Below are positions 626-40,609 of a DNA stretch of 64,000 nt, piece by piece. Under the pieces are notes generated by a model that made no database searches, was not told the origin of the DNA, and saw nothing but the letters and a program-made list of their open reading frames with translations. The DNA is from Nemertoderma westbladi (Eukaryota > Animalia > Xenacoelomorpha): assembly GCA_032718475.1 (NCBI GenBank), contig JAUCBJ010007426.1:62001-126000 (forward strand), read 5' to 3'. The translations under genes were made by a program, and so were the position numbers. Numbering within the stretch: position 1 is the first letter of the stretch; each line of letters starts with the position of its first letter.

Positions 626-1778
626 TGTAAAAGCTTCTGTGGGATATAACTGGCCCTTTTGCTTCGCAATCCAGTTTCCCCCCTAGGCGCTGGAATACTC
701 TAAAAGGCTCTATAACTATATATATATTCCCCTCGCCCGCAAGGTACCGTTATAGGTGTTTTAACGGACATAAAAGTCATTCTGCTATATACGTGTTTTG
801 GCGGACATGGTAAGGCAAAAAACCTGCAATGCACCAAATACCTTTCACAGCTTAGCCGTGATGATTCATATTACGACATCTAACAGCTGGTTGCTGACAT
901 GGAAACAGCCATTGGCCACATGGTTCTTTGTTTAGCTTAAGCCAATCAGAGCGATTTTTTCTGTCGATGTGGAGCTTTTCGGCCGATCATACTAGAAATT
1001 ATAGAGCGTATAACTGTTATCAACTCACATATCTTATCTAATCATAACAACTGATCGCAATTCAGTTTTACATTATCGGTTCAATATACATTATTATACT
1101 GCTGTTTACTATTGTTTGGTTGAATATTATTTGGAGAACATTTATAAAGAACCCAAATTTCCCAATTTTCTTGATACACTACAGGTTAGAGAGGCGGGTT
1201 ATATATAGCGATTGCGATTTATATTATTGTGTATGTAGTGAATTTAATGCTATTTGATAAGCACTACATTGGTCCGTTGCTGTTCTCTTTATATATGATA
1301 AAAATCATTGACGGTCGGCAAATTAGTGAGCAGTATTGTATGTTACCGGTAGTGTGCATGATTGTGACTGATAACTAAGCATTTCCTAAAGAATGCGCCT
1401 CATACGTGAATCATAAGCCTTACCGACTTACCATTGTGATTAGTATAAGTCATATCTCTGTTTACCTAAATAGAGCGCCACGTCCTAAAGGAACTGTTAA
1501 TATTTCCCGAAAGTGAATAATATTAGTCAGAAATTAATTATTAACGATCAATCGAATAATACAGTACAGTAAGCTTACACTGCAATAATAATCTAAGCCC
1601 TCAGAATCCAGTCTCCCGGGAATATCCAGCGGGTGAATGGACGCGCACTAGGCTGGCTTCTGCTAATGTTGTGTTTATTGGTATTAAATATTTGTTATCT
1701 TCTAAAGTCTATTTATAAACCAAAAGACATATAAATTTTGGCAGGTTAAACTGCTAAAGGTCTTCAAAAGCGCGTACA
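626..1778 (+). repeat. E1 5' LTR
   Basis: TGTAAAAGC...GCGCGTACA. Near-identical to 16728-17880 (about 6 substitutions by eye). Confidence 0.97.
1010..1020 (+). promoter_or_regulatory. E1 putative self-primer motif ATAACTGTTAT
   Basis: Exact reverse complement of 1779-1789. A CCAAT box (GCCAATCAG, ~941-949) lies ~65 nt upstream. Confidence 0.75.
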
Positions 1779-1789
1779 ATAACAGTTAT
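1779..1789 (+). promoter_or_regulatory. E1 non-tRNA primer-binding site ATAACAGTTAT
   Basis: Abuts the 5' LTR end, has no TGG start, and is complementary to LTR 1010-1020. Confidence 0.75.
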
Positions 1790-1845
1790 TGACTTTATTG
1801 CAGTAAGCAATAAAGTTGAAAGTACCGGTCGACCGGTAAACCTGA

Positions 1846-4012: not shown

Positions 4013-7000
4013 ATGTCTGACACTCAGCAAAACCTGTCAGACAGTCTAATCGATACAACCATCTGTGACACAGATAGGAGTGTGGAGCGATTAAGAAAGG
4101 AGTTCAGCTCACCTCCTACTGAAAGAAAGGTCATCCCTCCAGTAGAAGTATCAGACCCTAAGCTAATCCAACACCGTAGGTCTATCATCGGCACTAGGGC
4201 CCAAGTCAAACGGAACCAGGAAGCAGCTGTCCCACAGCAGCAACAGCCTAGTCAAGAAACTTGTTCCCAGCGATCCGATAGCTCCAGTAATTCGGATACT
4301 GTCGAGCTGACCCCCGAACGCGGATTGCAGATGGCGGCTAAAGCCTACTCGGACCCCCTTCTCACCCTTCCTGCCGCAGTGCTAACTACTATATTGATTG
4401 CGGTGGAGGAACATCAAGCCGATTGGGCGAGAAATAAGCGAGCGACCCAAGATAATTATGCGGGATACGCCATGGAAGAATTGATGTCTATTGTCGAGTC
4501 ACAATGGAACTTTCCCGGACCCGGACTCCCGTTAGATCTGTCCGAGGCTACTTGGGAAGATATACACAGGATGGGAGTGGCTAAAGATACGATGGATCCA
4601 GCTATTTGGAAGAGGTCGGCAGCAGGATATGTGCAGGGATTCTTCGGCTCCTTAGAGCGATTAGAAGAACAACTGTTTCGACAACCCCAAGGACCTCAAG
4701 AGCAGGAAGAACTGCTATATCAAGTACGCGAAAGAACCCTACGCATTCGAATAATCCTATCAGCTTTTGAGGAAACTTCCAAAAGAAGACAGGACACGTC
4801 GCTGCAGGTTGCTGTCAAAACTTGGTTCCAGCGGGTAGGTCTCAAAGTACAAAAAACAGACCAGTGGAAATCCCAGTTGTCTGAGAGACTAACCTATGAC
4901 GAACCAACCGATGTCACCCTTCCTCAAGTGGAAGGCGAAGAGACCGCAGAGAGACCACGAACGAGAGATGCCATCGACATATATCTGTCCGACTATCAGC
5001 GATTCCTAGGAGACGAAGAGTTGAGGAGACGGCTGTCTGGACTTTCCCCTAATAGTGAAGGAACCCAGCGTGTGTTAGACTCAATCGATGCTGAAATGTT
5101 AGCTGCTAACCAAGCTGAGTTTGATGAAAAACTCCGCCTCACTAGAGTCCAAGAAGAACTAGTAAAGAAAAAACGGATAGAGGACCGAAAGGCAGCTGCA
5201 GTAACAGCGGCAATGGCAGAAGTAGAAGCAGAAAGAAAGGCAGCGGCGGTAGAAGCAGAAGCAGAAAGAAAAGTAACAGCGGCAATGGCAGAAGTAGAAG
5301 CAGAAAGAAAGGCAGCGGCGGCAGAAGCAGAAGCAGAAAGAAAAGCAGCAAAGGCAGTAGCAGAAGCAGAACGGAGAGCGTCTGAGGAGACCACACAACT
5401 GGAGTTGGAAAATCTTCAAGAGACGCAAGACAACATAAATAAACAGTTAACTGCTAGTCACATGCAGATGATGAGAAGATCTACTCCCAAACGCCAGGGA
5501 TACACCTCATCAGAGGAAAGCGAAACCACCGATCCTGAAGGCGGAGGAAATAGATCTCGTCTAAGCAGGCGTAGAAAAACATCTCACCGTCACAAATTGC
5601 CTGATTTGCCCCCAGCGGTTAGAAGACAACTAGCTAGCCCAGACTTAGGTAGTATAGAACCTACAGACCAAATTATTAAGGTCAAAAGACTCCCTACAAT
5701 AGTTGATGAGCCTGAAATAATTGGGCCTGTCGTTCCCAAAGCCACTACTGTGCTAGAGACCCCTGTACTTCCAGAGCTTAACTCTAAATTCCCTTTACAC
5801 AGTACTACACTGCCTGTACCCGGTAGAACAGTCCATGAGAATATCCCTGTCCTGGAAGCTGAGAGAGAAATCAAAGATTTGTCTCCCGTCGTCCCACGTC
5901 AGCCCGCTACAATGTTGGCGACTCCCGCTTCGGCGGTCGAGTGGGTAGAGGAGGGACGGCGGGGGATGAATCTCCTGCTCGGACAGATGCAGGAGACTGT
6001 CTACCAACTTAAGGGAACAGTAAGGGAAGGTAGGGCAGAATTGCAAGAAGTGCAGCAAAGTATCGCGCTGGAACGCGACAAATTAGTCAATATACAAAAG
6101 GGTATACCAATACCCCCAGTAACATTGTGTCAACCTGTTAGGTCTGAAGTATTACATGCGCAAGGTGTGGAGCCTACACGCATCTATACTGCTAGTGAAG
6201 TAGAAACTCCTATAGCAAACCCTATTAAGGGTGATTATAAACCTGTTGTTAATGATATTCCCTATAGACCCGATAATGATCCGAGAAATTTATATACCGA
6301 TAATTCGATATTAAATAACACGATGGCCCAAGAAAGCTTTACGCGTCAGATGGCTAGAACAGAAGCCCGCCAAGCGGTCAAAGTGGGAGAGATCGTCAAA
6401 TTCAATGGAGATGAGATGAAATGGTTACCTTTCAACGAATATTACAAAGACAGTATACAGAACTCTGTGCTATCTAACGGAGAGAAACTTAGGTTCCTCA
6501 TCAAGTGTTTGGAAGGACCTCCCAAGTTAATGGCGTTAAAGTTTATTGGACATCCAGAAGGATTAAGACAAGTATGGGATACATTAAACATCAGGTATGG
6601 TAACAAGGATAACATAGCTAAGTATTTGTATGCAAAATTAGTAGCCCCCCGACACTTCCTTAGTAGCGGGATTATAGAGTTTTCCGATGAAATTCAGGAG
6701 ATCTGTAGACAATTGGACTGGTTAGGTAAGTCTCATGAACATCAGAGTTCCATGGTTATTGGAGCAGTAGTCTCTACTTTACCCAAGGGTGGAGTATGTA
6801 CACGTTGGGACAACAAAGTGTTGTACATGAATGAACAACAACGACGAAGCCCTACCATGACTGATCTCATGTCCTTCTTAGATGGTGAAGTAAAACTACA
6901 ACTCATCAAGCAGTCCAGAGAGAAAACATCGGAAAATAAGGTAAGTGAGAAACCCGCTTCTAGGAGAAGAGTAACACCGGTGTGTTACACTGACGACGGC

Positions 7001-7513
7001 GAAAGCCAAGCTTTTCAAGAAGAGGACAGCGGGAAAGACACTGAGAGATCTTACTACGTTGAAAAAACCTCAAAAGATGTAAGTAAATACAAGGCTCGAA
7101 ACAACGATAGGAGAGAACAGGTTGCCAAGACCCCTCCTCAGTCTCCTAACAGAATGCACCGAAGAAAACCCGAAGAAAAAACGAGAGTGCATCAAGTTAC
7201 CCAAGGTAAAGTGAGTAACATAAAACCTAACTGTGCGCTGTGCGACGGGACCCACCGTTTGAGTGCGTGTGCTGAATTTCTAAAGAAATCCCTTGTAGAC
7301 AGACGTGCAGTCGTGTGGGACAAGCGGTTATGCTATAATTGCCTCAGACCAGGACACCAACGGCGAACCTGTTACTCCGACATAAAGTGTGCAAAGTGTG
7401 GCGCGAAACATCACATCTTGTTACACAGTGAGTTCGAACGAGACAAACTGAGTCAGGTAAGTGAGCCCGAACTACATGTCCAATTCAGTGATGTAAACGA
7501 CACTGAACATTGA
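4013..7513 (+). CDS. gag: E1 Gag (BEL/Pao), cut off from pol by a deletion frameshift
   Basis: AEAERKA coiled-coil repeats, KFNGDEMKWLPF capsid-like region, and three Cys/His knuckles (CALCDGTHRLSAC, CYNCLRPGHQRRTC, CAKCGAKHHILLH) typical of BEL/Pao. Confidence 0.93.
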   Translation: MSDTQQNLSDSLIDTTICDTDRSVERLRKEFSSPPTERKVIPPVEVSDPKLIQHRRSIIGTRAQVKRNQEAAVPQQQQPSQETCSQRSDSSSNSDTVELTPERGLQMAAKAYSDPLLTLPAAVLTTILIAVEEHQADWARNKRATQDNYAGYAMEELMSIVESQWNFPGPGLPLDLSEATWEDIHRMGVAKDTMDPAIWKRSAAGYVQGFFGSLERLEEQLFRQPQGPQEQEELLYQVRERTLRIRIILSAFEETSKRRQDTSLQVAVKTWFQRVGLKVQKTDQWKSQLSERLTYDEPTDVTLPQVEGEETAERPRTRDAIDIYLSDYQRFLGDEELRRRLSGLSPNSEGTQRVLDSIDAEMLAANQAEFDEKLRLTRVQEELVKKKRIEDRKAAAVTAAMAEVEAERKAAAVEAEAERKVTAAMAEVEAERKAAAAEAEAERKAAKAVAEAERRASEETTQLELENLQETQDNINKQLTASHMQMMRRSTPKRQGYTSSEESETTDPEGGGNRSRLSRRRKTSHRHKLPDLPPAVRRQLASPDLGSIEPTDQIIKVKRLPTIVDEPEIIGPVVPKATTVLETPVLPELNSKFPLHSTTLPVPGRTVHENIPVLEAEREIKDLSPVVPRQPATMLATPASAVEWVEEGRRGMNLLLGQMQETVYQLKGTVREGRAELQEVQQSIALERDKLVNIQKGIPIPPVTLCQPVRSEVLHAQGVEPTRIYTASEVETPIANPIKGDYKPVVNDIPYRPDNDPRNLYTDNSILNNTMAQESFTRQMARTEARQAVKVGEIVKFNGDEMKWLPFNEYYKDSIQNSVLSNGEKLRFLIKCLEGPPKLMALKFIGHPEGLRQVWDTLNIRYGNKDNIAKYLYAKLVAPRHFLSSGIIEFSDEIQEICRQLDWLGKSHEHQSSMVIGAVVSTLPKGGVCTRWDNKVLYMNEQQRRSPTMTDLMSFLDGEVKLQLIKQSREKTSENKVSEKPASRRRVTPVCYTDDGESQAFQEEDSGKDTERSYYVEKTSKDVSKYKARNNDRREQVAKTPPQSPNRMHRRKPEEKTRVHQVTQGKVSNIKPNCALCDGTHRLSACAEFLKKSLVDRRAVVWDKRLCYNCLRPGHQRRTCYSDIKCAKCGAKHHILLHSEFERDKLSQVSEPELHVQFSDVNDTEH

Positions 7514-10017
7514 ACACTGAACCAACTTCCAACGTAGGAATCAGAGAATTTCCTGTAGTGCAGGTAAGAGTTCACGGTCTTAACAAAAGTTACATAGTGA
7601 ACGCCCTCCTTGACTCCGGCAGCACAGGAACATTCATCGATCAAGAACTAGCCGAAGATATCTTTGCTGGACAACCCAAGTTCCGGACTAAATTGAATAT
7701 GTCAGGAATTATGCAGGTTTGGAAATCTACCCTAACGGCAGATTACTATGTAGGTGTGTTGTCCACCCCCCAGGATAAGTTAGGAGCACAAGGTATAAGG
7801 TCGGTAAAAATGGTGGCTATAAAGAACTTCGCCACTACTCAAGCAGACCTTTATAATTGGGACGAGGATGAGAGCATCCAACATCTTAAGATACCTCGAT
7901 TCCAGACAGATTATCCTGGAGTGCAAATACTCATCGGCCAAAATGCGCACGAGGCGCTCGAAACATTAGAGAAACGGCCTGCTCAACCGCAGCCACTGCA
8001 AACCTATGCGGTAAGAACTAGAGTAGGTTGGTACTTTACTGGCCCTTCCCGCAGGACTCTCGAAGAGAGAAGGCCACAAGAACGAGTATACCAGGTGAGT
8101 GATTGGAGCGAGGAGAGCAGTGAGGTTGATGAACTAACTGAGGGAACACCATACTCCTCAGATAATGACGACATCTACCAACTCTTCGATGAAGAGAACA
8201 CAATCGACCTACTTACAGAAAACCAAACTTGGAAAAATCAGGTGAACCTATGTCAACTGATTCGCCCATCGGAACCCATCGCTTACAATGACGAACTAAA
8301 CGATGAGATAGAACGCTACAACGCTAGAACTCGGGACGAACTAGCCGTACGATTCTTTACTCAGGAACTGGTAGAGCCCAATTCATATGATAAGGCTCTA
8401 TCGATAGAAGAAGAAAGAGCCAAGCAAATCCAGGAAACAACTACACGTTTTTTAAAAGACCAAGGTAGGTATGAAATCGGCCTACCATTTCGAAAACGAG
8501 AACCTAGATTTATAAATAACAGACCCTTGGCAGAGAAAAGAATCGCTCAATTACATCGACGACTTACAGCTAATGCTGCAGCGAAAGAAATGTACCAAAC
8601 TCAGCTGAAGAAATTTATAACAAAGGGATACGCGGAGCGAGTACCGGAAGGAACACCAGTGACCGAGAGAACGTATTACTTAACACATCATTACGTTCCC
8701 AAACCCGGTAAACCCCATGAAGTACGAGTCGTATTCGATGGCTCTGCTCTATATATGGGCCAATCCCTCAATTCCGAGTTGTTACCAGGACCCAACTTAC
8801 TCCAATCTTTGTTGGGAATACTTTTGAGATTAAGACAATATTCCATCGCGTTCGCCTCCGATATAGAAGGAATGTTCTTACAAGTCAAGGCGCTGGATAG
8901 AGATAGAGACAGCCTGAGATTTCTGTGGTGGCCTGAAGGAGACCTCAATCAGAAACCGGTAGAATATTGGATGACCATCCAGGCTTTTGGAATCATATCA
9001 AGCCCTTCCAACGCCTGCTCCGTGGTGCGAACCACTGCGAATGACAACCGAGACTCCTTCTCAAAAGAAGTGATAGACAATATAAAACGCAATATATACA
9101 TGGACGACAATTTAAGGTCCCTTCCATCAGTAGAAGAAGCCAAAGCTGTCGCGAAAGGAACGGTAGAGTGTTTGAAGAGAGGTGGATTTCGACTGACGAA
9201 ATTCACTAGCAACTCCCGTGAGTTTCTGGAAGCCATACCGGTAGAAGACCGAGGAACGAAAGACCTAGACTTAATAAAGGACGATCTTCCTGAAACCAAG
9301 ACGCTAGGCTTGAAGTGGGACACTGAAAGAGACATCCTGTTTTTTCAGTTAAAACAGCGAGATAATCCAGTTCGGACCAAACGGATTTGTTTAAGCATCC
9401 TGAGCACTTATTTCGACCCATTGGGATTTATTAGCCCAGTTATATTGATTGCTCGGAGTTTAGTACAACAAATGTGGCTTGAAAACCACTCATGGGACGA
9501 TCCGCTTAAGGGAGAATTGTTAAAGACATGGATGAAATGGGAAGATTCTCTACCTGCCATCGAGAACTTTATAATTTCCCGTGCATATTTTGGCCATGTT
9601 CTTCCTACGTATTCCTATCAACTCCATGTGTTTGGAGATGCCAGCGACATGGGAATAGGTATAGTAGCATATCTGCGAGTCGAAACTCCGGATGGGATCA
9701 AAGTCGCCTTGGTTACCTCTAAGGCATTGATTAACAACAAGTTAAAGGTTCCTCGAGCGGAGTTAAAGGCAGCTTTATACGCTACAGCCATCGGCCGGAA
9801 CGTAACGGAACAAATCGACTATCCGCTGGAGAAAACGGTTTATTGGACCGACGCTTTACTCGTGTTGGAGTATCTAACCAATGAAGTCTGTCAGTTCAGC
9901 GTTTTAGTTACTAACCGAGTAGCTATTATTCTTAGTCGCACAAAGATAGATCAATGGAGACATTGCCCTGGTACGATTAATCCAGCCGATATCGCCTCCA
10001 GGGGAACAACTCCATAG
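7510..10017 (+). pseudogene. pol: E1 pol part 1: aspartic protease, RT, RNase H
   Basis: ALLDSGSTGTFI, FASDIEGMFLQV, YMDD, LHVFGDAS, VPRAELKAA. Ends at TAG where E2 has AAG. Confidence 0.93.
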
Positions 10018-11982
10018 GAACTGATAGATACTCCAGATTGGTTGGGTGGACCCGACTTCCTGAGCAAGGAAGAGGATGAATGGCCTCCTCACCTTACTAC
10101 GGCAGAGATTAGACAAGCCAAGGGAGCGGAGACAGTCAAACCTAAAACCCGGGCGAGTAAATCGAAGTTATTTAAACCGACTATCGATCTATCTGTATTA
10201 CATACTTCCGGGAATGATGCTTCGGATCCACAATCCCTCAACACAAATAAGTCTGTTGTGGAAATTAGAGATAGAGATTGGAAATCTGGAATACCAGACG
10301 TCTCGCAAGGAATCTCACCCATGCTGCAGAGAGCAATGCATCACTACAGTTCCTGGAATCGGCTCTGTAAAGCCGTCACATATTTAAGACGATGTTTTCA
10401 TCATCACTACTCCAGGACGAAGACCACTAGTGATACCGCTCCATTGACATCTGCACAAGTTCATGTTATTAAAAATTTACCCAAATATAAGACATCGGAT
10501 CGTTTTCTAAAGGAGAAAATTAGTCACCAGGAGCATGAAGAAACCAATAAGCAGATACTGAGACTCCTGCAATGCTATGAGGATTCCGAAAAGTATTTCC
10601 TGTTGTTGAGAAATCCGCAGATGCGCTTAAGGGATCGATTCTCGAGCACAATGATAGATGGGCTAATACGTGTTGGAGGAAGACTCACCAATGCGCCCTT
10701 ATCCTTTGACACTAAATTCCCCATACTCATTAGAAATCTTGAAGTACAAATCAAGATGATTGTAGATGTTCACAGCAAACTTTATCATGCTGGTAGAGAA
10801 CGAGTTCTTAGCGAAATTCGAACTCGCTATTATTTTGATAAACCCCGTAGAGCTCTGAACCAAGTTCTTAGGAACTGCATACCCTGTAGGAAAGCATTCA
10901 GTAGGCCTTTAACACAGCGAGAGGCAGAATTACCTAGGGAACGAGTAAGCTTCTATGAACCACCTTTTACTAATACTGGTGTAGATTTATTTGGCCCTAT
11001 TGAAGTATATCGTGCTAGGACTATAGTCAAGAGATGGTGTGTCATCTTCGTATGCATGACTTGTAGAGCCATCCATCTCGATATGGTGAACGATCTATCT
11101 ACCAACAGCTTCGTCTTAAGTTTACGCCGACAGATCGCTCGCTTCGGGACGAGTAATACCATGAGATCGGATAAGGGAACGAACTTCATTGGTGCCAACA
11201 ACGAAATACAGGCTTACGTGAAGGACTGGAACCAAAGACAGGTGGACGATCAGCTAAGGATAACAGCGTCTAGCTGGACCTTCAACGCCGCCGACGCCCC
11301 TTGGTGGGGAGGAAGTTGGGAGAGATTAATTAGAAGTGTCAAGACCGCATTTCACTTTATAGTGCCATGCCGCGCGTATCTCACCGACGAACTTTTGCGG
11401 ACGTTAATGGAGGAAATAGCTGCCTATCTCAACGAGAGACCGCTTATGCCAGTCTCATTGAGTCCCGATTCCCTGGAAGCGCTAACACCCGCGCACTTCC
11501 TACTGAAGAAACCTGTAGCCATGCTCCCACGATCGGAGATTACCGACGGAGACGAATACTGCCGTCGAACTTGGCAACTTATGCAGTTGCTATCCCGTCG
11601 TTTCGCTGACCATTTCGAGAAACATTATCTGCCCACGCTACAACTTCGAACTAAGTGGTTTGCGCAGCAAGAAAACGTCAGCGCCGGAGATATGGTGCTT
11701 ATTGTAGATCCAGACCTCCCACGTAAACGGTGGCAGACAGGTCGTATCATCGAGACTCACATCTCGGATGATGGTTTAGTACGCTCAGTAGAACTTGTCG
11801 TCATGCGGCGTAACTTCAAGAAGCCAGGCATAATCTTTGAGACGCAACAACTCAATCGCCCAGTTGGTCGTTTATGTTTACTGGAAAGAGACAGAGAACT
11901 CTCTGGAAACTATGGAAGGCAAGACACTCTTCCCACGACCACCTCCCTAATTCCTCAAACATCTAGGGACTCCCCAACGTGA
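10018..11982 (+). pseudogene. pol: E1 pol part 2: integrase (same frame, after the premature stop)
   Basis: HSKLYH...CIPC zinc-binding motif, GVDLFGP, SDKGTNF, WERLI (DDE core). Collinear with the E2 ORF. Confidence 0.93.
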
Positions 11983-13608
11983 TACGTCTGGAGTGGGTGT
12001 ATGACTATATTGTTTTATCTATTTTATTATATTTTTATATGCGAACTTTATTATGTACTTTATTATAATCGTTTTTATTCAATTTTATTTAGTAAAATGT
12101 TATTTTAGTGATTATTTAGTAGATTAGTGCAATATATTAGTGTTTATTACGTACGTAATTACTTATAATATATATTTAGTGCGACGGCGAGAAATAATTT
12201 TTTCTCTTTCCTTACTGTCCGTATCATATTATAAATACGTGACTACAGTAAGATGAAATGTCCGTACTTATTAAAGTACAATAAAGCTCCTACTATACTT
12301 AAGTATTATTGGTAGGCAGAGTATTAGGAATGCAAAGTTCAGATCCTCGTGTCTCGGCTAAACCAAGCTCTGGGTAGACCTTGGAAACGACTTGCCTCTT
12401 CACACTGACATTGCTTCGTGCGATATTGCTCTTCTACCTTATATTAAATAATACATATAGTAGCGTGATGTCCATATAACAGTAGCGTAAAACGCAAATA
12501 AATCTGTTAAACCCTTTGACCATCTGTAATTCTAGTCGATTAAGATATCGTGGCACCCACCGATATACTTGAAAGACAAATTCTAGAATCAATGGTTAAC
12601 GTCTCCAGACAAGTTCTGGAATAAATCGGTGCCCATCTTAAATATTAATTTAATATTTATTCAAATCTGTAAAATTCAGATCCTTTAAAATTTCTAGTCA
12701 ATTAAGATATCGCAGCACTTACCGATACTCTTAAAAGACAATTTTATAGAATTAAGGATCCTCAGTCCCCAGACATGCTCTGGAATAAAAATTGTGTCAA
12801 TTTTAACATCAAATAATAAAATTCACGGGAATAGATTTAAATTCATATTTTAAATGAATTTCATAAATTGTCATTTTGTGCAATTTATAACATTCCCAAA
12901 ATTCCATTAATTAATAGATCATGGGAGCGGAGATTCATCCTATTGAGTGTATTAGAGTGCGAGAATCTCCAACATATAGTCAATAGCCGATAAAATTAAT
13001 AAAATCATGCATAAAGAGGATATTGACAATTAAAGAATTATTATTAAATAGCATCCCAGATCTGTATGCATGAGAATTACCCTAATTCTACCGCTAGCAT
13101 TCCATAATGTCACCATAGCAACACCCACGCTAGAATTAGAAGCAAGTTAAGAGAACAATAGAAAGCTTGTCCCATTGCATAGCATAGAGAATACATAACA
13201 CACTGTTAGTATCCAAGGATACACAGTAATAACGTGACATTCTGGAATGCACTGACTAACGGACAAATGGCCTGTATGTGTACAATTGGTGACAGTTGTG
13301 TGGAATTTGTGCGTTTATAGGTGAATGTTACTGCTAAAGTATGTTTACAGTAGCTAGTCGCAATTGTGAAAGTAGCCCAACTCTCCTATAGAAAGAACCT
13401 AAAGTGGATTCAAGCCTTTGGGACGGACAGTGGAGTGACTTGTGCCGGTTATCGTTGTCGTGCTGTTGCTACATGTTGGCGTAAACACTGCGACGACGGT
13501 ACATCGGCGCTGAGAATCCCACTGTCCGGGGGCAAAGAGAGGTAGGCAGCGACGTCCGCTCGCCTAAACATAAACTCATTTCGATATTAATAAACTCAGA
13601 TAGCAGAT

Positions 13609-13986
13609 ATGACGGAGTTGATAGAAGATGATCTTGGTATCAGGGAGCGATATACTCTACCTTTACAAGCATTTGTGGATAGCTTGATACGCGGTGAAAC
13701 CGATCCAACCATTACGGAGGACGATGGTCGTTATATCGAGCCGCCGATGTCCCAAGAGCAACTTACGCGTGAATTGGACTATCGAAAATTCACCGCTCGC
13801 TATACGCATCGTAATAGTACGTATATGGACTTCCTAACTACCGGCCATCCTAGCGATTTGCATGATACGGACGATGTAGATACAGAGAGGGAAATGGTTC
13901 TATTTAAATATCATACCCAGCGGAGTCGTAACGATAAACCGAGAATGGAACACGAGAATTCTATTCGAAAACAACTCGAAAGATAG
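13609..13986 (+). pseudogene. E1 accessory ORF, N-terminal part (MTELIEDD...), truncated
   Basis: Homologous to E2 28624-27794 and E3 59679-60077. A TAG replaces Glu (E1 ER*NVEE vs E2 EREDVEE). Confidence 0.8.
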
Positions 13987-14873
13987 AATGTGGAAGAAAG
14001 CTTGTAAAGACAAATAGAGGAGAACACTGGAGAAGAGACATGGGTTAATGTCCAGGGTCCATGATGTGAATAGTTTTTCCCCGGGGCACGGGTGCTCGCG
14101 GGCAGTCTCCTTCGGGAGGCTGTAATTTCTCTTCCTTCATCGTTTTCCTGTAATTATTGTGATCAGTGTCACAATTAAAGGGCAAGAATGAATGATGATG
14201 TGACGGAAACATGTCCATTGTGGTATCTTATGGATACTACCATATATCCTCCCTCCTCTTTACTCCCTTTATCCCTCTATACATCGCTATTGAAAATACA
14301 ACATACTTCGTCCCACCTTCTCTTCCCAATGTGCTCGGAGCTTTGGGAGACGATCGACCAATCATTGCCGTATCGTGGTATGGATCATACCGCCTCCTAA
14401 TAAATCCCCCCACCCCTTACTGTTTATTTGTATGCTCATATTGGTGTCCGCACCTCTCGTCCATGTAACATTCCACATTCTGTTGATATTTATGATATCA
14501 ACTTCCACCCTCGCGTTGTTGATTAGAAAATCAACCACCAATAATTTCCTTAAGTCCGCAACCGTGATACAAACAAGGACTGAAAGGACACGAGGATAGT
14601 TTGTGAACAACTGGTACCATTATGTGTCATAAATCTGGTTGTTCACCTCCCTCAATGATTGGAGATATAAATCTTATGTAGAACAACTGAGACAAACATA
14701 TCCTTGAACGGGTATTTACCTCCTCGCTAGGGATAAATTCATTTAGAGATCGTCTTCGAACGATTGAATCTTCCTACTGAAGTCGTATTTCTGAATATTT
14801 CTGAATACGATATAAGTCTTCCTCTGCTCTCGATCATCAATGGCGGAAAACATATTAGTCATCCTAGGGGAAC

Positions 14874-16649
14874 ATGGAGAACATTCCATACCCTCTCGTT
14901 GATACTCAGCTGATTGCTCCCTGGGCAGAAGGTCGAGGTTTCTTCCGCACTATGTATGCTAATACGCCTAGCAACATTACCAAGGTGCAACGAACTTCCA
15001 TCGGACATCTTGCCTTTCAGGAATACGGATGGAATTTCAAAGTCGGAAATCCCATTAACTATCAACAAGTATACGGAGATCATTATTCTCGATTGTACTT
15101 TGATGGACCATTAACTGCACCTGGCGCCGTGTATAGCTTCATGAGTGTTCCACTCCGTCCCTCCTTAGCTATATACACGATCTTTGAAAACAGCGCACTT
15201 GCCGGTTGGCTAGCCGATGTGTGCAGTCGTACTATACGCGCCCATCCATTAATACTTGGGACCAAACTCGCTAAGCTAGATGAACATAATAAATTCATCC
15301 GTTTCGAATGTTTCCGGCGATTTTTAACCCCGTTCCGCAACGTGGATAGCCAATTTAAAGACTGCGCTTTGACCAAACTCAGCCTAAGAAACTCAGCTGC
15401 AGAGAAGTTGGATAGCGCTGGATTCGCCATTTTCAAAGAGATTTGTATATCGAACTTGCACTCCTCTGTTATACAAAGACCTCGAATCCCCACAGGTTAT
15501 TCTGTCGTGGAAATTCAGACAATAGGTCCACCTGAAGAGACAGACGCACCCACTTCAGCTATGCACTTGGAAGACGAACCAATATGTCTAGAATCTGAAG
15601 AGATTCAGCCTATCGCGCCCCGGAACAGCGACAACGATTACATCATAGAATGGTATCAAGGTCCACAGTGTCTCACTGCGTACGATTATCGACATGCCAA
15701 CTATGTTTCTAGGCAACGTTGTCGGTTATGCGCATTGAGAGACCACGATACGCCCATGGACACCAACGTCCGCTGTTCCTATTTCCAAGAACAACCGACT
15801 ATGGAAATTTATTGCGCATATTGCAGACTCAATAACTTGCATATCTTTGCGGTTTGCCCTCAATTTATGACTCAATGTCACCATTGTCAACTAAAGGGAC
15901 ATGCTAGTTTCGACTGCCCTTTTAATCACGATTTGGAAAGCGTAGATGAAATGATCACACTACGATACATCAGAGCTTGGGAAGCGAACGCTGATTTACA
16001 TTGTGATTCGCGCCATCGCTATTATCCCGGACGCGCTTATGAAGGAGTTTATGCGTTCCATCCTTATCTATTCGCTTCGGTTGAACAGAAATCACGCATA
16101 TCAAGTTACGAGCTACTGAAGCGTGTTGGAGAATGTATTTCAACCAAATTCGTACGCAAATTTCTCAGAAATGTTAATCCTAGCGACCTTCATTCCTATA
16201 ACTTAATCAATTATATCCGTCAGGATCCGGACTATGGAGACTTGTTTGTTAACTCACACCCCGAGTTACAGGAAGTATATCGACGGCCTTACGAATACCG
16301 AGCCCGCGAACGCGAGTTGGAAAGGACCATTAAACCCCGGAGGTTTCTAACTGCCTATGGTCCACCCACGGCCCTCGTTCAGACCACTCGTAAAGGACCC
16401 GTAAGAGCGGCTGTCTTGAAACGAGCTCTCAAAGCCGTTAGACCCCTCTCCCCGGACGTTGATGTCAATCAACCCGGTACTTCGACTGGCGGATACACCG
16501 ACCATAATCCTACACCCTCTGATGCAATCATATTGCACCCTTCACCCAGGAGTTATAGCCCTCCTTGTAAAGTGGCTCGCCCCAAAGAGAAAAGGACTCT
16601 GGCTAGCTTTAAGAAACTGCGTAAACGCCATCCGCGCAAGAAAGACTAA
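14874..16649 (+). CDS. E1 accessory ORF, C-terminal part: Cys/His zinc-knuckle-like protein with basic tail
   Basis: 591-aa ORF with CRLC..H..C, CAYC..H..C and CHHCQLKGHASFDC, ending KKLRKRHPRKKD. Remnants in E2 (27100-27260) and E3 (60048-60168). Confidence 0.8.
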   Translation: MENIPYPLVDTQLIAPWAEGRGFFRTMYANTPSNITKVQRTSIGHLAFQEYGWNFKVGNPINYQQVYGDHYSRLYFDGPLTAPGAVYSFMSVPLRPSLAIYTIFENSALAGWLADVCSRTIRAHPLILGTKLAKLDEHNKFIRFECFRRFLTPFRNVDSQFKDCALTKLSLRNSAAEKLDSAGFAIFKEICISNLHSSVIQRPRIPTGYSVVEIQTIGPPEETDAPTSAMHLEDEPICLESEEIQPIAPRNSDNDYIIEWYQGPQCLTAYDYRHANYVSRQRCRLCALRDHDTPMDTNVRCSYFQEQPTMEIYCAYCRLNNLHIFAVCPQFMTQCHHCQLKGHASFDCPFNHDLESVDEMITLRYIRAWEANADLHCDSRHRYYPGRAYEGVYAFHPYLFASVEQKSRISSYELLKRVGECISTKFVRKFLRNVNPSDLHSYNLINYIRQDPDYGDLFVNSHPELQEVYRRPYEYRARERELERTIKPRRFLTAYGPPTALVQTTRKGPVRAAVLKRALKAVRPLSPDVDVNQPGTSTGGYTDHNPTPSDAIILHPSPRSYSPPCKVARPKEKRTLASFKKLRKRHPRKKD

Positions 16650-16719
16650 CTGTTTAGAGTATTTACGTATATTAGAAACTGTGATTTTGTATATTTTATA
16701 GACTCAAATCCCATTTTCT

Positions 16720-16727: not shown

Positions 16728-17880
16728 TGTAAAAGCTTCTGTAGGATATAACTCGCCCTTTTGCTTCGCAATCCAGTTTCCCCCCTAGGCGCTGGAATAC
16801 TCTAAAAGGCTCTATAACTATATATATATTCCCCTCGCCCGCAAGGTACCGTTATAGGTGTTTTAACGGACATAAAAGTCATTCTGCTATATACGTGTTT
16901 TGGCGGACATGGTAAGGCAAAAAACCTGCAATGCACCAAATACCTTTCACAGCTTAGCCGTGATGATTCATATTACGACATCTAACAGCTGGTTGCTGAC
17001 ATGGAAACAGCCATTGGCCACATGGTTCTTTGTTTAGCTTAAGCCAATCAGAGCGATTTTTTCTGTCGATGTGGAGCTTTTCGGCCGATCATACTAGAAA
17101 TTATAGAGCGTATAACTGTTATCAACTCACATATCTTATCTAATCATAACAACTGATTGCAATTCAGTTTTACATTATCGGTTCAATATACATTATTATA
17201 CTGCTGTTTACTATTGTTTGGTTGAATATTATTTGGAGAACATTTATAAAGAACCCAAATTTCCCAATTTTCTTGATACACTACAGGTTAGAGAGGCGGG
17301 TTATATATAGCGATTGCGACTTATATTATTGTGTATGTAGTGATTTTAATGCTATTTGATAAGCACTACATTGGTCCGTTGCTGTTCTCTTTATATATGA
17401 TAAAAATCATTGACGGTCGGCAAATTAGTGAGCAGTATTGTATGTTACCGGTAGTGTGCATGATTGTGACTGATAACTAAGCATTTCCTAAAGAATGCGC
17501 CTCATACGTGAATCATAAGCCTTACCGACTTACCGTTGTGATTAGTATAAGTCATATCTCTGTTTACCTAAATAGAGCGCCACGTCCTAAAGGAACTGTT
17601 AATATTTCCCGAAAGTGAATAATATTAGTCAGAAATTAATTATTAACGATCAATCGAATAATACAGTACAGTAAGCTTACACTGCAATAATAATCTAAGC
17701 CCTCAGAATCCAGTCTCCCGGGAATATCCAGCGGGTGAATGGACGCGCACTAGGCTGGCTTCTGCTAATGTTGTGTTTATTGGTATTAAATATTTGTTAT
17801 CTTCTAAAGTCTATTTATAAACCAAAAGACATATAAATTTTGGCAGGTTAAACTGCTAAAGGTCTTCAAAAGCGCGTACA
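16728..17880 (+). repeat. E1 3' LTR
   Basis: Direct repeat of 626-1778, followed by TSD CACAC. Confidence 0.97.
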
Positions 17881-25861: not shown

Positions 25862-27018
25862 TGTTCGCGCTTTCAGACCTTTGGCAGTTTAACCCGCCAA
25901 ATTATGATGTCTTCTAGATAATAAATCACTTTTAGCCTATGACAAGTATTTAATTCACTACACTAGTCGAAACCAATCTGTGCGCGATCATTCACCCGCT
26001 GTATATACCCGGGAGATTGGGTTCGACGGCTTAATCTTATTGCTATGTAAGCCTAATGTATTATTCGACTGACAGTATTATATAATCTCTGACAATATTA
26101 TTCACCTTCGGGGAATATTAACAGTTCCTTTAGGACGTGGCGCTCTATCTATACAAACAGAGTTATGACTTAAACTACTCACAACGATATGGCTTAGTTA
26201 TAATTCACATATATGGCGCATTCTTTAGGAAATGCTTCGTTATCAGGCTCACTCATACACAATGCTGCACAATACTGCACACTGATCTGCCGATCTTCAC
26301 TGATTTTAGTTATATATAAAAGGAACACGGACCGACTCATGTAGGGTCTATCAAATAACATTAGATTCACTTCAAACCACTTTAACATAAGTCACAATCG
26401 TTATATGTAACCTTTCTCTCTTACCTTCGGTATATCAAGAATATTGGGTTTCGGGGTTATTTATCGTTATTCCAAATATAATAATTCATCAACCATATTA
26501 TGAAGAACTGACAGTAAATAGCAGTATAACAATATAAAAGTATGCACAGTGATTCAGTGTGGATTGTTTGGTTTGTTTTGCAATGGTTTGATAACGGATA
26601 TATGCCCTTTATAATTAAGCCTACTAGTGTTAGACTAAAACAGAAAAGCACAAAATATTTACAAGCCGTTCTCTCCTGGCTCAGGACAGAAAGACCAACA
26701 ACACTGAAAACTGATAAGAATAACCTTATTTACAAAGGCTTCCACCCAACACAGAGAAAGAGCATACAGATAGGAAAATTCAGTTCAGTAGATCTGTGAT
26801 AGGTCGAAATCAAAATCAACTCAAATCCTATTGGGAGATACTTTCCCAAGCTGGTTGGACAATCAAACGTAGCCCAGATCCCTTCGCACAGCAAATCAGC
26901 CAATCAGCCGGTAGCTTGCACTATTCGAGTTATAGATCCCCTTTTAGAGTATTCTAGCGCTTGGGGGGGAACTGTTTAGCAAGGCAAACAAATCAGTTAT
27001 CCCACAAAAGCTTTTACA
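25862..27018 (-). repeat. E2 3' LTR
   Basis: Direct repeat of 40610-41766. Confidence 0.97.
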
Positions 27019-27793
27019 CCGCTCCCAGAAAATGGGATTTAAGTCTATAAAATATACAAAATCACAATTTCTAATATACATAAATACTCTAAACAGTTAG
27101 TCTTTCTTACGCAGACGGCGTTTACGCAGTTTTTTGAGGCTAGCAAGAGTCCTTTTCTCTTTGGGGGGAGCCACTTTACTAGGAGGGCTATAAATCCTGG
27201 GTGAAGGGTGCAATATGATTGCATCAGAAGGTGTAGGATTATGGTCGGGGTATCCGCCGTTTCGATATGCTTCTCCTCGAGCTGATTTTCCTCCGCTCGT
27301 AGCTGGATACGTTCATCCAAAAACTCTCGCAGAGAATGGGGTTGTCTAAGTGCGATATCTTCTTAGAGATTCTGGATTTCACAATCGAACTGAGATAAAG
27401 ACAATTCGTTTATCGCTTGGACTTGCTGTTACAACTTACGTTTATCTGAACAAACGTAGGTTTCCTTTCTGATCTTTGTAGAATAGCGTTTAACTCGTTT
27501 AGTACAACGTTCTCCGCCACTCTGGTGACAGGTTATATCGTGTCAAGCCGGGATGATGGTAAGGGTTAAACGGCGATATTAAATGTCCGCGTCCCAATCC
27601 GGCTAGGTAGGATGGGCTAATATCTAAGAAACCCACAACTGGGGTGCCACCGACTAATCGTTCAGGTAACACTAGATCTTTGAGCAGTGAGTACAGCTAG
27701 GGAGGATCCGTCATACTAATAGGATCAAGAGTCTGAGGCCTCACTAGGGAATGAGGAGCTCTGATCGAGTATTCCGAAACTCTGATCATTGGT

Positions 27794-28624
27794 TTATTTA
27801 AGGATCGTCTGAGTCGAACGAGCGTAGGTGATACATTGAACAAACAAGTTTCGCTCGAAACTCCCGTAAGTATAGCGAGTAAAACCGTGTTTAAAGCAAC
27901 GTCTCCGCGGATGTTTATGTCTTTCCGTTTGTTGGTTGGGTCTTGGGCATTCATCGCAATAATACCCAAAAACGTACGTCTTGTAGGGGAAACGCGAGTG
28001 ATCTTTCTCCAGCTTACAATATTCCTCCATCCGTTCGAAGCTATTCGGTACAACAGGTAGCGGTCGATCGGCGGTAAGATACATCATAGGGGAATCGAGC
28101 CGTTTGAGTTCTACCATGCAGTCATGATGTATACCTTGAGGATATCGAGTTTCTAGATTTTGTTGACTGGCAATATTGAGATATGTTTCTATCAGGAATT
28201 CCAGATAATCGTTGAAGTCGCTGCGTTTATCCGGCTCCTCAACGTCTTCTCTTTCGATTCGGTTTCGCATAGAATTCTCATGTTCGATTCTCGGTTTATT
28301 GTTCCGCCTCCGCTGGGTATGATATTTAAATAGAACCATTTCCCTTTTGGTGTCTATATCGTTCATATCGTGTAAATCGATAGGATGACCAGTAGTTAAG
28401 AAGGCCATATACGTACCATTACGCTGCGTATATCGAGCAGCGAATTTTCTATAGTCCAACTCGCGCGCGAGCTGCTCTTGGGACATTGGCGGTTCGATAT
28501 AACGACCATCGTCCTCCGCAGCAGTTAGACTAACGTCGCCGCGTATTAAGCTATCAACAAACGCTTGTAAAAGTAGAGTATATCGCTCCCCGATACCAAG
28601 AACATCTTCTATCAACTCCGTCAT
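27794..28624 (-). CDS. E2 accessory ORF (MTELIEDV..., 276 aa), with degenerate continuation to ~27100
   Basis: Homologous N-terminus to the E1 and E3 accessory ORFs. Contains YCDEC...H...C. The downstream remnant rejoins the E1 ORF tail near 27260. Confidence 0.78.
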   Translation of the reverse strand: MTELIEDVLGIGERYTLLLQAFVDSLIRGDVSLTAAEDDGRYIEPPMSQEQLARELDYRKFAARYTQRNGTYMAFLTTGHPIDLHDMNDIDTKREMVLFKYHTQRRRNNKPRIEHENSMRNRIEREDVEEPDKRSDFNDYLEFLIETYLNIASQQNLETRYPQGIHHDCMVELKRLDSPMMYLTADRPLPVVPNSFERMEEYCKLEKDHSRFPYKTYVFGYYCDECPRPNQQTERHKHPRRRCFKHGFTRYTYGSFERNLFVQCITYARSTQTILK

Positions 28625-30271
28625 ATCTGCTATATATGAGTTTGTCCATATTATAATGAGTTTATATTTAGGCGAGCGGGCGTCGCTGCCTACCCTTCTT
28701 TGCCCCCCGGACAGTGCGAGATCCTCAGCGCCGATGTGTCGCCGCCGATGTACTTTCGCCAACGACGTAGCCGCACAACGACAACGACAACCGGCACAAG
28801 TCACTCGACTGTCCGTCCCAAAGGCTTAGATGTACTTCAGGTTTTCCTTGGAGAGTTAGGTTACTTTCACGATTGCGACTAGCTACTGTAAACACACTTT
28901 AGCAGTAACATTCACCTATAAACTCACAAATACCACACAACTGGTCACAACTACGCACATTCGGGTCATTTGTCCGTTAGTCAATGCCTTCCAGAATGTC
29001 ACTGTATTATTATGTATCCTTGGATACTAGTAGTGCGCTATTTATTCCCTATGCTATTCAATGGGACAAGCTTTCTATTGTTCTTTTAACTCAATTCTAA
29101 TTCTAGCGTGGTTGTTGCTATGGTGACATTATGCAAAGCTAGCGGTAGAATTAGGGTAATTCCAATGCATACAGATCTGGGATGTTATTTAATAGTATTC
29201 TTTAATAGTCAATGTTCTGTTTTATACATGACTTTATGAATTTTATCGGCTATTGACTATGTTTGGGAGACTTTCGCACACTCATATGCATAATAAGATA
29301 AATCTCCGCTCCCTTGACCTATTAATTAATGGAATTTTGGGAATGTTATAAATTGCGCAAAAAATGGCAATTTATTAAATTCATTAAAAGGCATGAATTT
29401 AAATTATTCCCTGAAATTTTATTATTTACTAATTAGATGGACATATTTTGATTCTAGAATATGTCTGGGGACACAAGATCCTTAATTCTATGACAATTGT
29501 CTTTTTAAGAATATCGGTAAATGCTACGATATCTTAATTGACTAGAATTGTTGAAGGATCTGAATTTTACAGATTTTGATTTATTAGATTTGCAAATATT
29601 AAATAATTAATATTTGAGATGGGCACCGATTTATTCCAGAACTTGTCCGGGGACGTTAACCACTGATTCTAGAATTTGTCTTTCAAGTATATCGGTGGGT
29701 GCCGCGATATCTTAATCGACTAGAATTACAGATGGTCAAAGGGTTTAACAGATTTATTTTGCGTTATACGCTACTGTTAAAGGGACATCACGCTACTATA
29801 TGTATTATTTAATATACGGTATGAGAGCAATATCGCACGAAGCAATGTCAGTGTGAAGAGGCAAGTCGTTTCCAAGGTCTACCCAGAGCTTGGTTTAGCC
29901 GAGACACGAGGATCTGAACTTTGCATTCCTAATACTCTGCCTACCAATAATACTTAAATATAGTAGTGGCTTTATTGTACTTTAATAAGTACGGACATTT
30001 CATCTTACTGTAGTTACGTACTTATAATATAATACGGACAGTAAGGAAAGAGAAAAAGAATTATTTCTCGCCGTCGCACTAAATATAATATAAGTAATTA
30101 CGTACGCAATGAACACGAACATATTGCACTATTCTACTAAATAATCACTAAATAATATTCTACTAAATTAAATAAAACGATTATAATAAAATTACATAAT
30201 AATACATACATAAATATAAAAATAATAAAATAATATAAAATAATAGAGTCACACGCCCACTCCGAACGATA

Positions 30272-33200
30272 TTAAGTTGGGGAGTCCCTAGATGTCGGTT
30301 GGATTAGGGAAGTGGTCGTGGGAAGAGTTTCTTGCCTTCCATAGTTTCCGGAGAGCTCTCTGTCTCTTTCCAGTAAACATAAACGACCCACTGGGCGATT
30401 GAGCTGTTGAGTCTCAAAGACTATCCCTGGTTTCTTAAAGTTACGTCGCATGACGACGAGTTCTACTGATCGCACCAAACCGTCGCTCGAGATATAAGTC
30501 TCGATGATACGTCCTGTTTGCCATCGCTTACGTGGGAGATCGGGGTCCACAATAAGCACCATGTCTCCAGCGCTGAAGTTTTCTTGCTGCGCAAACCACT
30601 TAGTTCGAAGTTGTAGAGTGGGCAGGTAATGTTTCTCGAAATGGTCAGCGAAACGACGGGATAGCAACTGCATAAGTTGCCAGGTTCGACGGCAGTACTC
30701 GTCTCCGTCTGTGATCTCCGATCGTGGGAGCATGGCTACGGGTTTCTTCAGTAGAAAGTGCGCGGGTGTTAGCGCTTCCAGGGAATCAGGATTTGAAGAG
30801 ACTGGCATAAGCGGTCTTTCGTTGAGATAGGCGGCGATTTCCTCCATTAACGTCCGCAATAGTTCGTCGGTGAGATAAGCGCGACAAGGCACAATAAAGT
30901 GGAACGCAGTTTTCACGCTTCTAATCAATCTCTCCCAACTTCCTCCCCACCAAGGGGCGTCGGCGGCGTTGAAGGTCCAGCTAGACGCTGTTATCTTTAG
31001 CTGATCGTCCACCTGTCTTTTGTTCCAGTCCTTTACGTAAGCTTGAATTTCGTTGTTGGCGCCAATGAAGTTCGTTCCCTTATCCGATCTCATCGTGTTA
31101 CTGGTTCCGAAACGAGCGATCTGTCGTCGTAAACTCAACACGAAGCTGTTGGTGGATAGATCGTTTACCATATCGAGATGGATAGCTCTACAAGTCATAC
31201 AAACGAAGATGACACACCATCTCTTGACTATAGTCCGGGCACGATATACTTCAATAGGGCCAAATAAATCCACACCGGTATTAGTAAAGGGTGGTTCATA
31301 GAAGCTTACTCTTTCCCTAGGTAATTCTGCCTCTCGCTGTGTTAAAGGCCTACTGAATGCTTTCCTACAGGGTATGCAGTTCCTAAGAACTTGGTTCAGA
31401 GCCTTACGGGGTTTATAAAAATAGTAGCGAGTTCGAATTTCGCTCAGAACTCGTTCTCTACCAGCATGGTACAGTTTGCTATGAACATCTACAATCATCT
31501 TGATTTGTATGTCAAGATTTCTAATGAGGATGGGAAACTTAGTGTCAAAGGATAATGGGGCGTTGGTCAGCCTACCTCCAACACGTATTAACCCATCTAT
31601 CATGGTACTAGAGAAGCGATCCCTTAAGCGCATCTGTGGATTTCTTAACAACAGGAAATACTTATCGGAATCCTCATAGCATTGTAGGAGTCTCAGCATC
31701 TGTTTGTTGATTTCATCATGCTCCTGGTAACTGATCTTCTCCTTTAGAAACCTGTCGGATATCTTGTATTTGGGGAGATCTTTAACAACATGGACTCGTG
31801 CAGATGTTGATGGAGCATCATCACTATTGGTCTTGGTCCCGGAGTAACGATGATGAAAACATCGTTTTAAATAGGTGACGGCTTTACAGAGCCGATTCCA
31901 GGAGCTGTAGTGACGAATCGCTCTCTGCAAGAGGGGTGAGAGTCCTTGCGCGATATCTGGTATTCCAGATTTCCAATCCTTGTCACGGATTTCCAAGACT
32001 TCTCTAGTCGTGGCGGTGGGTTTCTGATCCAAAGCATCCTCTCCGGAAGTAAATAATACAGATAGATCAACCGCAGGTTTAAACAACTTCGATTTACTCG
32101 CTCGAGTTTTGGGTTTAACTTTCTCCGCTCCCTTGGCCTGTCTGATCTCTGCTGTTGTGAGATGGGGAGGCCATTCTTCTTCTTCTCGGTAGAGAAAGTC
32201 GGGTCCACCTAACCATTCAGGAGTATTTACCAATTCCTTTGGAGTCGCTCCTCGGGAAGCGATGTCTGCTGGATTAATCGTTCCGGGGCAATGTCTCCAT
32301 TGGTCCATCGTCGTGCGACTAAGTATGATGGCTACTCTGTTGGTAACGAAGACGCTGAACTGACAGACTTCATTGGTTATATACTCTAACACGAGTAAAG
32401 CGTCGGTCCAATAGACAGTTTTCTCTAATGGATAGTCAATCTGTTCTGTTACATTCCGGCCGATGGCTGTAGCGTATAGAGCCGCCTTTAACTCCGCTCG
32501 AGGAACTTTCAACTTGTTGTTGATTAATGCCTTAGAAGTAACCAAGGCGACTTTGATTCCATCCGGAGTTTCCACCCTTAGATAGGCTACTATACCTATT
32601 CCCATATCGCTGGCGTCTCCAAACACATGGAGTTGATAGGAATACGTAGGGAGAACATGACCAAAATATGAACGGGAAATTATAAAATCCTCGATAGCTG
32701 GCAGAGAATCTTCCCATTTCATCCACTTCTTCAATAATTCTCCCTTAAGTGGATCGTCCCATGAGTGGTTTTCAAGCCACATTTGTTGTACCAAACTACG
32801 AGCAATCAATATAACTGGGCTAATAAATCCCAATGGATCGAAATAAGTGCTCAGTATACTTAAGCAAATCCGTTTGGTTCGAACTGGATTATCTCGCTGT
32901 TTTAGCTGGAAAAACAGGATATCTCGCTCTGTGTCCCATTTCAAGCCGAGTGTGTTGGTTTCTGGCAGATCATCTTTGATCAAATCGAGATCTTTCGCTC
33001 CTCGATCTTCCGCAGGGATCGACTCCAGAAACTCACGGGAGTTGCTGGTGAATTTCGTTAATCGAAACCCACCTCTTTTTAAGCACTCTACCGTTCCTTT
33101 AGCTACCTCAATGGCTTCCTCAACTGATGGAAGGGACTTCAGATTGTCGTCCATGTATATGTCTCTCTTGATGTTGTCGATCACTTCCTTAGAGAAGGCC

Positions 33201-40598: not shown

Positions 40599-40609
40599 AT
40601 ATCCGTTAT
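40599..40609 (-). promoter_or_regulatory. E2 non-tRNA PBS ATAACGGATAT
   Basis: Abuts the 5' LTR. Reverse complement of the LTR motif ATATCCGTTAT (41339-41349, minus strand). Confidence 0.78.

Follow-up and report, generated by a model that had tools for sequence, protein, structure and literature searches.

A zinc-knuckle reading frame with a basic tail, located past pol and ahead of the 3′ LTR in a long BEL/Pao retrotransposon

The window, that is, the whole 64-kb stretch of DNA that was analysed, holds nested BEL/Pao LTR retrotransposons next to a host C2H2 zinc-finger gene. Three copies of one retrotransposon family (family A) lie within it, namely E1, E2, and E3, and the insertion site of E2 is inside an element of a second family (family B). 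The carrier elements and their main parts are:

626-17880, + strand: E1 element, 17255 bases
626..1778, + strand: 5′ LTR of E1, with TG...CA ends and 6 differences per 1153 bases from the 3′ LTR
1779..1789, + strand: primer-site position of E1, whose 11 bases can pair with LTR positions 385-395
4013..11982, + strand: gag-pol of E1, frame broken near 7510 and with a stop at 10015-10017
11983..13608, + strand: spacer of E1, 1.6 kb, non-coding, with an AG two bases before the following ATG
16728..17880, + strand: 3′ LTR of E1
25862..41766, - strand: E2 element, 15905 bases, its LTRs showing 3 differences per 1157 bases
starting at 50542, + strand: E3 element, internally deleted, with a shortened 3′ LTR

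The carrier belongs to BEL/Pao (Belpaoviridae), as identified by the set and order of its gag and pol domains. In E1 gag-pol, the domains follow one another as DUF1759, gag knuckles, protease (Asp_protease_2), RVT_1, Peptidase_A17/RNase H, Integrase_H2C2, and DUF5641, and the Pfam set of the family-A pol is that of nearly all 120 pol relatives listed. Among these listed matches, the closest pol shares 36-37% identity across the full query, and marine invertebrates and fish are the sources of those relatives that are named. The family-A LTRs (1153, 1157, and 1190 bases, with TG...CA ends) fit the range of 0.2-1.2 kb given for BEL/Pao (PMC8742986). At 17255 and 15905 bases, E1 and E2 exceed the typical total length of 4.2-10 kb (PMC8742986, PMC3118150), a range that does not override the pol evidence. 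A 5-base target duplication flanks E1 on both sides, and E2 is likewise flanked by a 5-base duplication. Both elements were probably mobilised in trans, since they were inserted recently and yet have broken gag-pol frames. Family A is strongly repeated, with a read depth of about 1e5-1e6 compared to 23-49 on the unique flank, depth not being equivalent to copy number.

Past pol and ahead of the 3′ LTR, where BEL/Pao elements may carry an env-like gene, the family-A copies contain the following features:

13609..13986, + strand: N-terminal part of the E1 extra ORF, 125 codons, acidic, common to the three copies, with a stop at 13984-13986
14000..14867, + strand: gap in E1 without coding signal, rich in indels relative to other copies, in which the frame cannot be set
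14868-16649, + strand: open frame in E1 of 593 codons, giving 591 aa from an ATG at 14874
15720..15917, + strand: three Cys/His clusters (CxxC-x-H) in that frame, starting at 15720, 15813, and 15876
16488..16649, + strand: shared tail in E1, 53 codons, common to E1 and E2
27794..28624, - strand: E2 extra ORF, 276 aa, comprising the shared N-terminus and the start of an E2-type middle with YCDEC
27097..27793, - strand: remaining, broken E2 middle and the shared tail, with a sharp join at 27258
59679..60077, + strand: E3 extra ORF, comprising the shared N-terminus and an out-of-frame join to 127 bases of E1-type middle, followed by the truncated 3′ LTR

A preliminary description of this DNA had placed a sense ORF starting with MTELIED about 1.6 kb past pol in all family-A copies, and such an ORF was found in each of the three, with start codons at 13609 (E1, + strand), 28624 (E2, - strand), and 59679 (E3, + strand). 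The pol stop and this ATG are 1627 bases apart in E1 and 1648 bases apart in E2, and the E3 start lies at the matching place. The interval 13609-16649, which had been treated as one unit in E1, does not form a single frame: the first frame ends at its stop codon at 13984-13986, and the gap of about 870 bases behind it contains 12, 18, and 14 stop codons, depending on the frame, against 16 in shuffled sequence, and lacks a codon signal. Most of this gap is about 10 times shallower in the read sets, again with the proviso that depth is not copy number. The 593-codon run that follows has a probability of about 4e-14 given the stop frequency of shuffled sequence; it opens with its own ATG, six bases past an AG, and the C-terminal end of the 591-aa frame reads KKLRKRHPRKKD. 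The 591-aa C-terminal portion with three Cys/His clusters that had been claimed for E1 is thus present, and it is possible, if rather doubtful, that E1-type copies hold two separate genes in this region.

In E2, the extra ORF ends after a frameshift near 27840, and the different middle portion with YCDEC that had been reported for this copy is present. No homology between the E1 and E2 middles was detected in DNA or protein, the best of 12 comparisons (p 0.02) not being significant after 12 tests. The fusion of N-terminus and E1-type middle claimed for E3 is real as a DNA join, but it is out of frame, and E3 retains only the 127 bases of that middle, with knuckles and tail absent. The region is broken somewhere in all three window copies. 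The knuckle array is confined to the E1 form, and E2-type copies have the tail without the array. Both middles are deep in three organism-A DNA runs from two samples, with the shared ends deeper still; in run X1, for instance, depth reaches about 1.4 million on the shared ends and 0.1-0.7 million on each middle, figures that do not measure copy number. The region therefore occurs in at least two abundant forms, which share a start and a tail and differ by unrelated middles.

One long ancestral ORF could have contained both middles, in which case E1, E2, and E3 would be complementary deletions of it; the sharp junctions in E2 and E3 are in line with such a history, as are the few bases that both sides of the E3 join have in common, and the E3 join is seen again in 8-13 contigs per run, indicating that internal deletions do spread. 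Against such an ancestor, no joint linking the E1 to the E2 middle occurs among the 15 joints shown of 189, an insensitive test in which the known E3 join appeared only as a loose end. In addition, the E2 middle also runs on into the tail in a contig from organism B with about 87% likeness, so that this arrangement is not private to E2, and the excess depth of the shared ends over each middle is what alternative forms would give. The single long ancestral protein of the preliminary description accounts for the two unrelated, abundant middles no better than swapped middles or two genes do, and the complementary-deletion model is regarded as rather unlikely. An architecture of swapped middles is tentatively proposed instead, at somewhat less than even odds.

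Selection is directly evident only at the shared start. Over its 125 codons, dN/dS is 0.26 (bootstrap interval 0.14-0.50), 0.15 (0.06-0.36), and 0.21 (0.11-0.39) for three pairs that are not independent, while off-frame controls gave 0.89 and 1.50; for comparison, the values are 0.05-0.10 in pol and 0.16-0.31 in gag. With ratios of 0.15-0.26 and all intervals below 1, instead of the value near 1 that would speak against a selected gene, the N-terminal 125 codons are shown to be under purifying selection. A high silent rate underlies the low ratio, since the N-terminal dN between E1 and E2 (0.105) is the same as the spacer divergence (0.101). In the tail, a dN/dS of 0.41 (0.11-1.83) is not significant, and a second open frame is present.

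For the remainder of the region, read variants and contigs of a second organism were considered. The best 40 of 552 and the best 40 of 922 read-variant rows yielded 21 distinct rows in three set frames, with the variants at 27640-27684 (n=5) excluded from the count, as the frame there is not set. Among these listed common variants, third positions hold 14/21 (p 0.002), and 13/21 are silent; the E1-specific middle accounts for five of those listed, three silent and two not. The short overlap between E1 and E3 shows no silent bias, 4/6 differences being at first or second positions. Three organism-B contigs that align to the 591-aa frame differ from it by 29, 38, and 11 substitutions, with 0 gaps, whereas the one such contig on the E1 gap has 12 gaps. 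Likewise, 6/12 indel rows shown at a 30% threshold fall in 14024-14569 and none in 14874-16649. Taken with the variant pattern, these observations make it likely that the knuckle frame is also under selection.

The third cluster of the 591-aa frame is a canonical CCHC knuckle of the form CX2CX4HX4C (residues 335-348, 15876-15917); the second has the form CX2CX5HX4C, and in the first, nine residues separate H from C. In shuffles of the 591 aa, one canonical knuckle appeared in 6/20000 and three clusters in 0/20000. The knuckle region aligns with zf-CCHC_3 at E 0.044, and its only sequence matches among solved structures are Air2, MLV NC, and copia Gag (4 rows, E 0.03-7.6), the best being yeast Air2 at E 0.031. 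Every knuckle profile match falls below curated thresholds, and the scores are weak but all point in one direction. The tail ends in a basic, NLS-like stretch with a net charge of +12 over the last 41 aa.

Judged by its Cys/His clusters, basic tail, and lack of a membrane segment, the product of the 591-aa frame is predicted not to be an envelope protein. The maximum 19-residue hydropathy is only 1.10 in the 591 aa, in agreement with the preliminary statement that no transmembrane segment is evident, and 1.08 in the E2 ORF. To judge from their charge and hydropathy, the N-termini are acidic or polar. Furin sites (R-x-K/R-R) number zero in each of these two sequences, N-glycosylation motifs one in each, and no Pfam glycoprotein profile matches the extra ORF region; resemblance to a known env was thus not found. 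In the E1 gap, a membrane segment may once have existed, since one of the three gap frames holds a hydrophobic stretch with a hydropathy of 2.43. A decayed env whose membrane parts formerly occupied that gap would nevertheless have to accommodate the low hydropathy of both ORFs, an acidic N-terminus, a C-terminus that is basic and not hydrophobic, and CCHC knuckles, which are intracellular motifs. Such an origin is extremely improbable, and for the 591 aa it is already largely refuted. A separate nested element is not indicated either, as 13400-16750 contains no internal repeat and no further copy of the middle, or other match to it, occurs elsewhere in the 64-kb window. These results support the view that the region is genuine coding sequence under selection, that it includes a zinc knuckle and a basic tail, and that it is neither env nor a separate nested element.

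Protein searches returned no relatives of this region. None of 3721 candidates among 5.8 billion proteins (325-1035 aa) was a relative of the 591 aa, nor was any found among 1.84 billion representatives; for the E2 ORF, the result was 0 of 298 among proteins of 151-483 aa. Viral contigs and metagenome contigs contained no relative of the extra ORF, and Pfam and PHROGs identified none beyond the weak zf-CCHC_3 match. These blank searches do not demonstrate deep novelty, because the lineage is unsampled, the nearest pol being only 36-37% identical. Single-sequence folds were poor (mean pLDDT 33 and 42), and Foldseek with a 215-aa model drawn from these low-pLDDT folds gave no match at E 0.001; its top rows, PsbP/DcrB-type folds at E 0.02, were not accepted as evidence. 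A capsid-like identity for the helical N-terminal half was also considered and found no support from the fold, Foldseek, or the gag comparison.

The knuckle ORF could be captured cargo, derived either from the gag of another retroelement or from an Air2/CNBP-type CCHC gene of the host. It would have been coding at the time of capture, may aid packaging or have no role at all, and would now be undergoing loss or exchange. Unrelated middles joined sharply to the same start and tail, a knuckle pair that matches Air2 best, an ATG of its own behind a non-coding gap, and the breakage of all three window copies would all suit such an acquisition. No donor was found, however, among 1.84 billion representatives or 120 BEL polyproteins; the element's own gag matches the knuckle region no better than E 0.14; the middle has no repeat or second copy in the window; and the frame is gap-free in the diverged organism-B contigs. 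Captured cargo is accordingly considered fairly unlikely.

The presumed soluble nature of the protein, its RNA-type knuckles, and its basic tail point to a nuclear location. The reading favoured here, with a probability of roughly 0.4, is that the zinc-knuckle product is a nuclear accessory protein that binds the full-length RNA of its element for export or stabilisation, in a manner resembling CERV or HIV Rev. It would be expressed from a spliced subgenomic RNA by way of the AG just ahead of each ATG. The basic tail would then direct nuclear import and the knuckles RNA binding, with the long conserved spacer or the 5′ leader as the bound site. The protein may act in trans, as suggested by the recent insertion of E1 and E2 though they are broken, and its effect on the bound full-length RNA, export or stabilisation, would parallel that of CERV on Cer1. 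The extra knuckles likely serve a step other than nucleocapsid function, because gag keeps its own knuckles and that work is already supplied. The combination of knuckles and basic tail fits several other jobs equally well.

Some properties of the non-coding parts are compatible with an RNA-level role. Spacer divergence between copies is 0.07-0.10, lower than at synonymous sites, and the 2.2-kb leader of family A is, like the 1.6-kb spacer, less diverged than silent sites. In spacer folding, three of eleven 150-base segments modestly beat shuffles in all three copies (z of -1.5 to -2.9, -1.9 to -2.6, and -1.9 to -2.9). An AG lies two bases ahead of the first ATG in all three copies, and a clear pyrimidine tract is absent; this AG may be regarded as splice-acceptor-like.

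The preliminary description had also offered an anti-silencing factor. Such a protein would attach, within the nucleus, to DNA of the element or to nascent RNA and would block piRNA or chromatin silencing, and the swapped middles would reflect an arms race. The basic tail and zinc ligands, the orphan status in searches, two abundant unrelated middles, and the high repetition of the family, as seen in read depth (not copy number), are all consistent with this proposal. On the other hand, CCHC knuckles typically bind single-stranded RNA, and the part of the region that could be compared gives no sign of positive selection, making this role quite improbable.

A further suggestion was that the extra ORF is linked to self-priming. 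Primer sites for tRNA begin with TGG. The primer-site position of E1 lacks this initial TGG and is complementary to the element's own LTR, and in BEL/Pao the primer site is described as 18 nt complementary to a host tRNA (PMC8742986). In all three family-A copies, the first 11-13 bases that follow the 5′ LTR are complementary to a stretch inside the copy's own LTR, with letters that differ by copy (shuffle p 0.026, 0.028, and 0.008). This recurrence despite differing sequences is what favours a role as an RNA chaperone in establishing self-primed reverse transcription. Family B, represented by one copy, shows an 11-base self-priming-like signature as well (p 0.001), but between its pol and 3′ LTR there are only tandem repeats and no ATG ORF >84 aa; on this one counter-example, the signature does not need the extra ORF, and the proposed link to self-priming is weakened. 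Since gag carries its own knuckles and a nuclear-import tail appears ill-suited to a step in cytoplasmic particles, the chaperone role is very improbable.

If the favoured role as a nuclear RNA-binding accessory protein is combined with the two-form structure, a broader scheme may be envisaged: a giant self-primed BEL/Pao lineage that is a complex retroelement, with the env slot as an exchangeable cassette in which a fixed start and a nuclear-import tail enclose swapped, unrelated middles, among which would be a novel zinc-knuckle family of RNA regulators that evolved independently of CERV and Rev. This scheme as a whole is distinctly unlikely. Two abundant forms and deletions without knuckles occur side by side in a single genome, which opens the role of the gene to comparative testing. 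For the present, the gain is limited, as expression and function are deduced from sequence features.

With respect to known systems, the extra ORFs of Tas and Cer7 are presumably env-like. BEL/Pao elements are characterised as carrying gag-pol, at times together with an env-like gene, in a length of 4-10 kb (PMC8742986). According to PMC13524379, such genes include the F-like protein of roo and the chuvirus/gB-like glycoprotein of mosquito elements. The family-A region has the same genomic position and orientation as these genes; unlike them, its 591 aa lack a membrane segment, furin site, and glycoprotein match and have knuckles and a basic tail. The statement that extra ORFs of BEL/Pao are envelope-like thus stands for roo and the mosquito elements but is too strong as a rule, given the non-env ORFs that the available texts report in other LTR groups, and the family-A case warns against calling every post-pol ORF env. 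As far as these texts extend, bdelloid LTR elements carry non-env ORF3s (PMC5408684), and plant elements, such as Grande with gene23, carry additional ORFs, some of them nuclear and mostly of unknown origin (PMC7264820). Family A shares with them a family-specific extra ORF past pol in long elements. In contrast, the bdelloid and plant carriers are gypsy-type, and their ORFs are GDSL, DEDDy, coiled-coil, membrane, or antisense, with no knuckle ORF named in the parts covered. The tandem knuckle spacing aligns with that of Air2 and of retroviral and copia nucleocapsids over about 40 residues; the likeness does not go beyond the Cys/His pattern (E 0.03 or weaker), and the other 500 residues match nothing. 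Among the listings of openly accessible literature that were covered, no BEL/Pao element with a zinc-knuckle ORF past pol was found.

The closest parallel is CERV of the C. elegans Ty3/gypsy element Cer1, described in the available text of PMC10309623 as an orphan env-position ORF that contains a candidate NLS together with a Cys finger, expressed from a spliced RNA and required for export of Cer1 genomic RNA. Like CERV, as that text presents it, the family-A region is a non-env ORF placed past pol and ahead of the 3′ LTR in an animal LTR element, has no relatives outside its lineage, encodes 500-600 aa, and combines a candidate basic NLS with a cysteine finger, a likeness at the motif level only. 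It differs, on the same partial account, in its BEL/Pao carrier and in having a CCHC knuckle array where CERV has a C4-type loop; CERV shares exons with gag and has a proven role, whereas the family-A protein is known from sequence alone. Family A has, moreover, two alternative middles, and no sequence link was found, protein searches with the 591 aa giving no CERV match. At best, therefore, the family-A protein may work like CERV, and it is not classed as a CERV member. Should this parallel be correct, family A would be the second animal LTR retrotransposon, after the one encoding CERV, to have its own regulator, in another superfamily and with an unrelated protein.

Over the shared tail, the 53 codons with a basic, NLS-like end common to two family-A BEL/Pao copies (E1 and E2), a second reading frame is also open, and it becomes hydrophobic toward its end.

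16489-16700, forward strand: second frame across the shared tail, running about 70 codons without a stop in E1 as well as in E2

This second frame is likely incidental, since its dN/dS is 0.99 (52 codons). Within the non-coding spacer between pol and the extra ORF (the zinc-knuckle coding region in the env position), 150 bases at 12275-12425 show 1-4 differences among E1, E2 and the third copy, E3. A search of these bases for a fold signal in the three copies found none, and the block is a candidate sequence-specific cis element. Within its extension, the family-A gag includes an alanine/glutamate repeat near 5200-5370 whose copy number varies between elements.

4013-7513: family-A gag with a very long N-terminal extension

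Two further open frames were delineated.

48895-50220, forward strand: open frame of 441 codons
62553-63725, reverse strand: host ORF for a C2H2 zinc-finger array, containing 84-base repeats

No match to the 441-codon frame was firm (Pfam B2 at E 0.075, PHROG at E 0.064), and the frame proved unrelated to the extra ORF when the two were compared. Inverted repeats flank it near 48529-48654 and 50323-50450, and frame and repeats together possibly make up a TIR element that encodes an uncharacterised protein.

By eye, all three family-A copies display an inverted repeat of about 10 bases with a five-base loop.

About 1791-1815 (E1), equivalent places in E2 and E3: inverted repeat directly 3′ of the primer-site position

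All four BEL/Pao 5′ LTRs in the window, representing two families, carry a self-priming-like signature: in each, 11-13 bases 3′ of the LTR are complementary to an internal site of the same LTR, with letters that differ per element.

1779-1789: E1 signature, pairing with window bases 1010-1020 inside the LTR
40609-40599, reverse strand: E2 signature
51732-51744: E3 signature
46368-46358, reverse strand: family-B signature

This signature is possibly more surprising than the extra ORF. Among the papers listed in literature searches, none was by its title an obvious case of a self-priming BEL/Pao element; the ICTV description of the family is of tRNA priming (PMC8742986).
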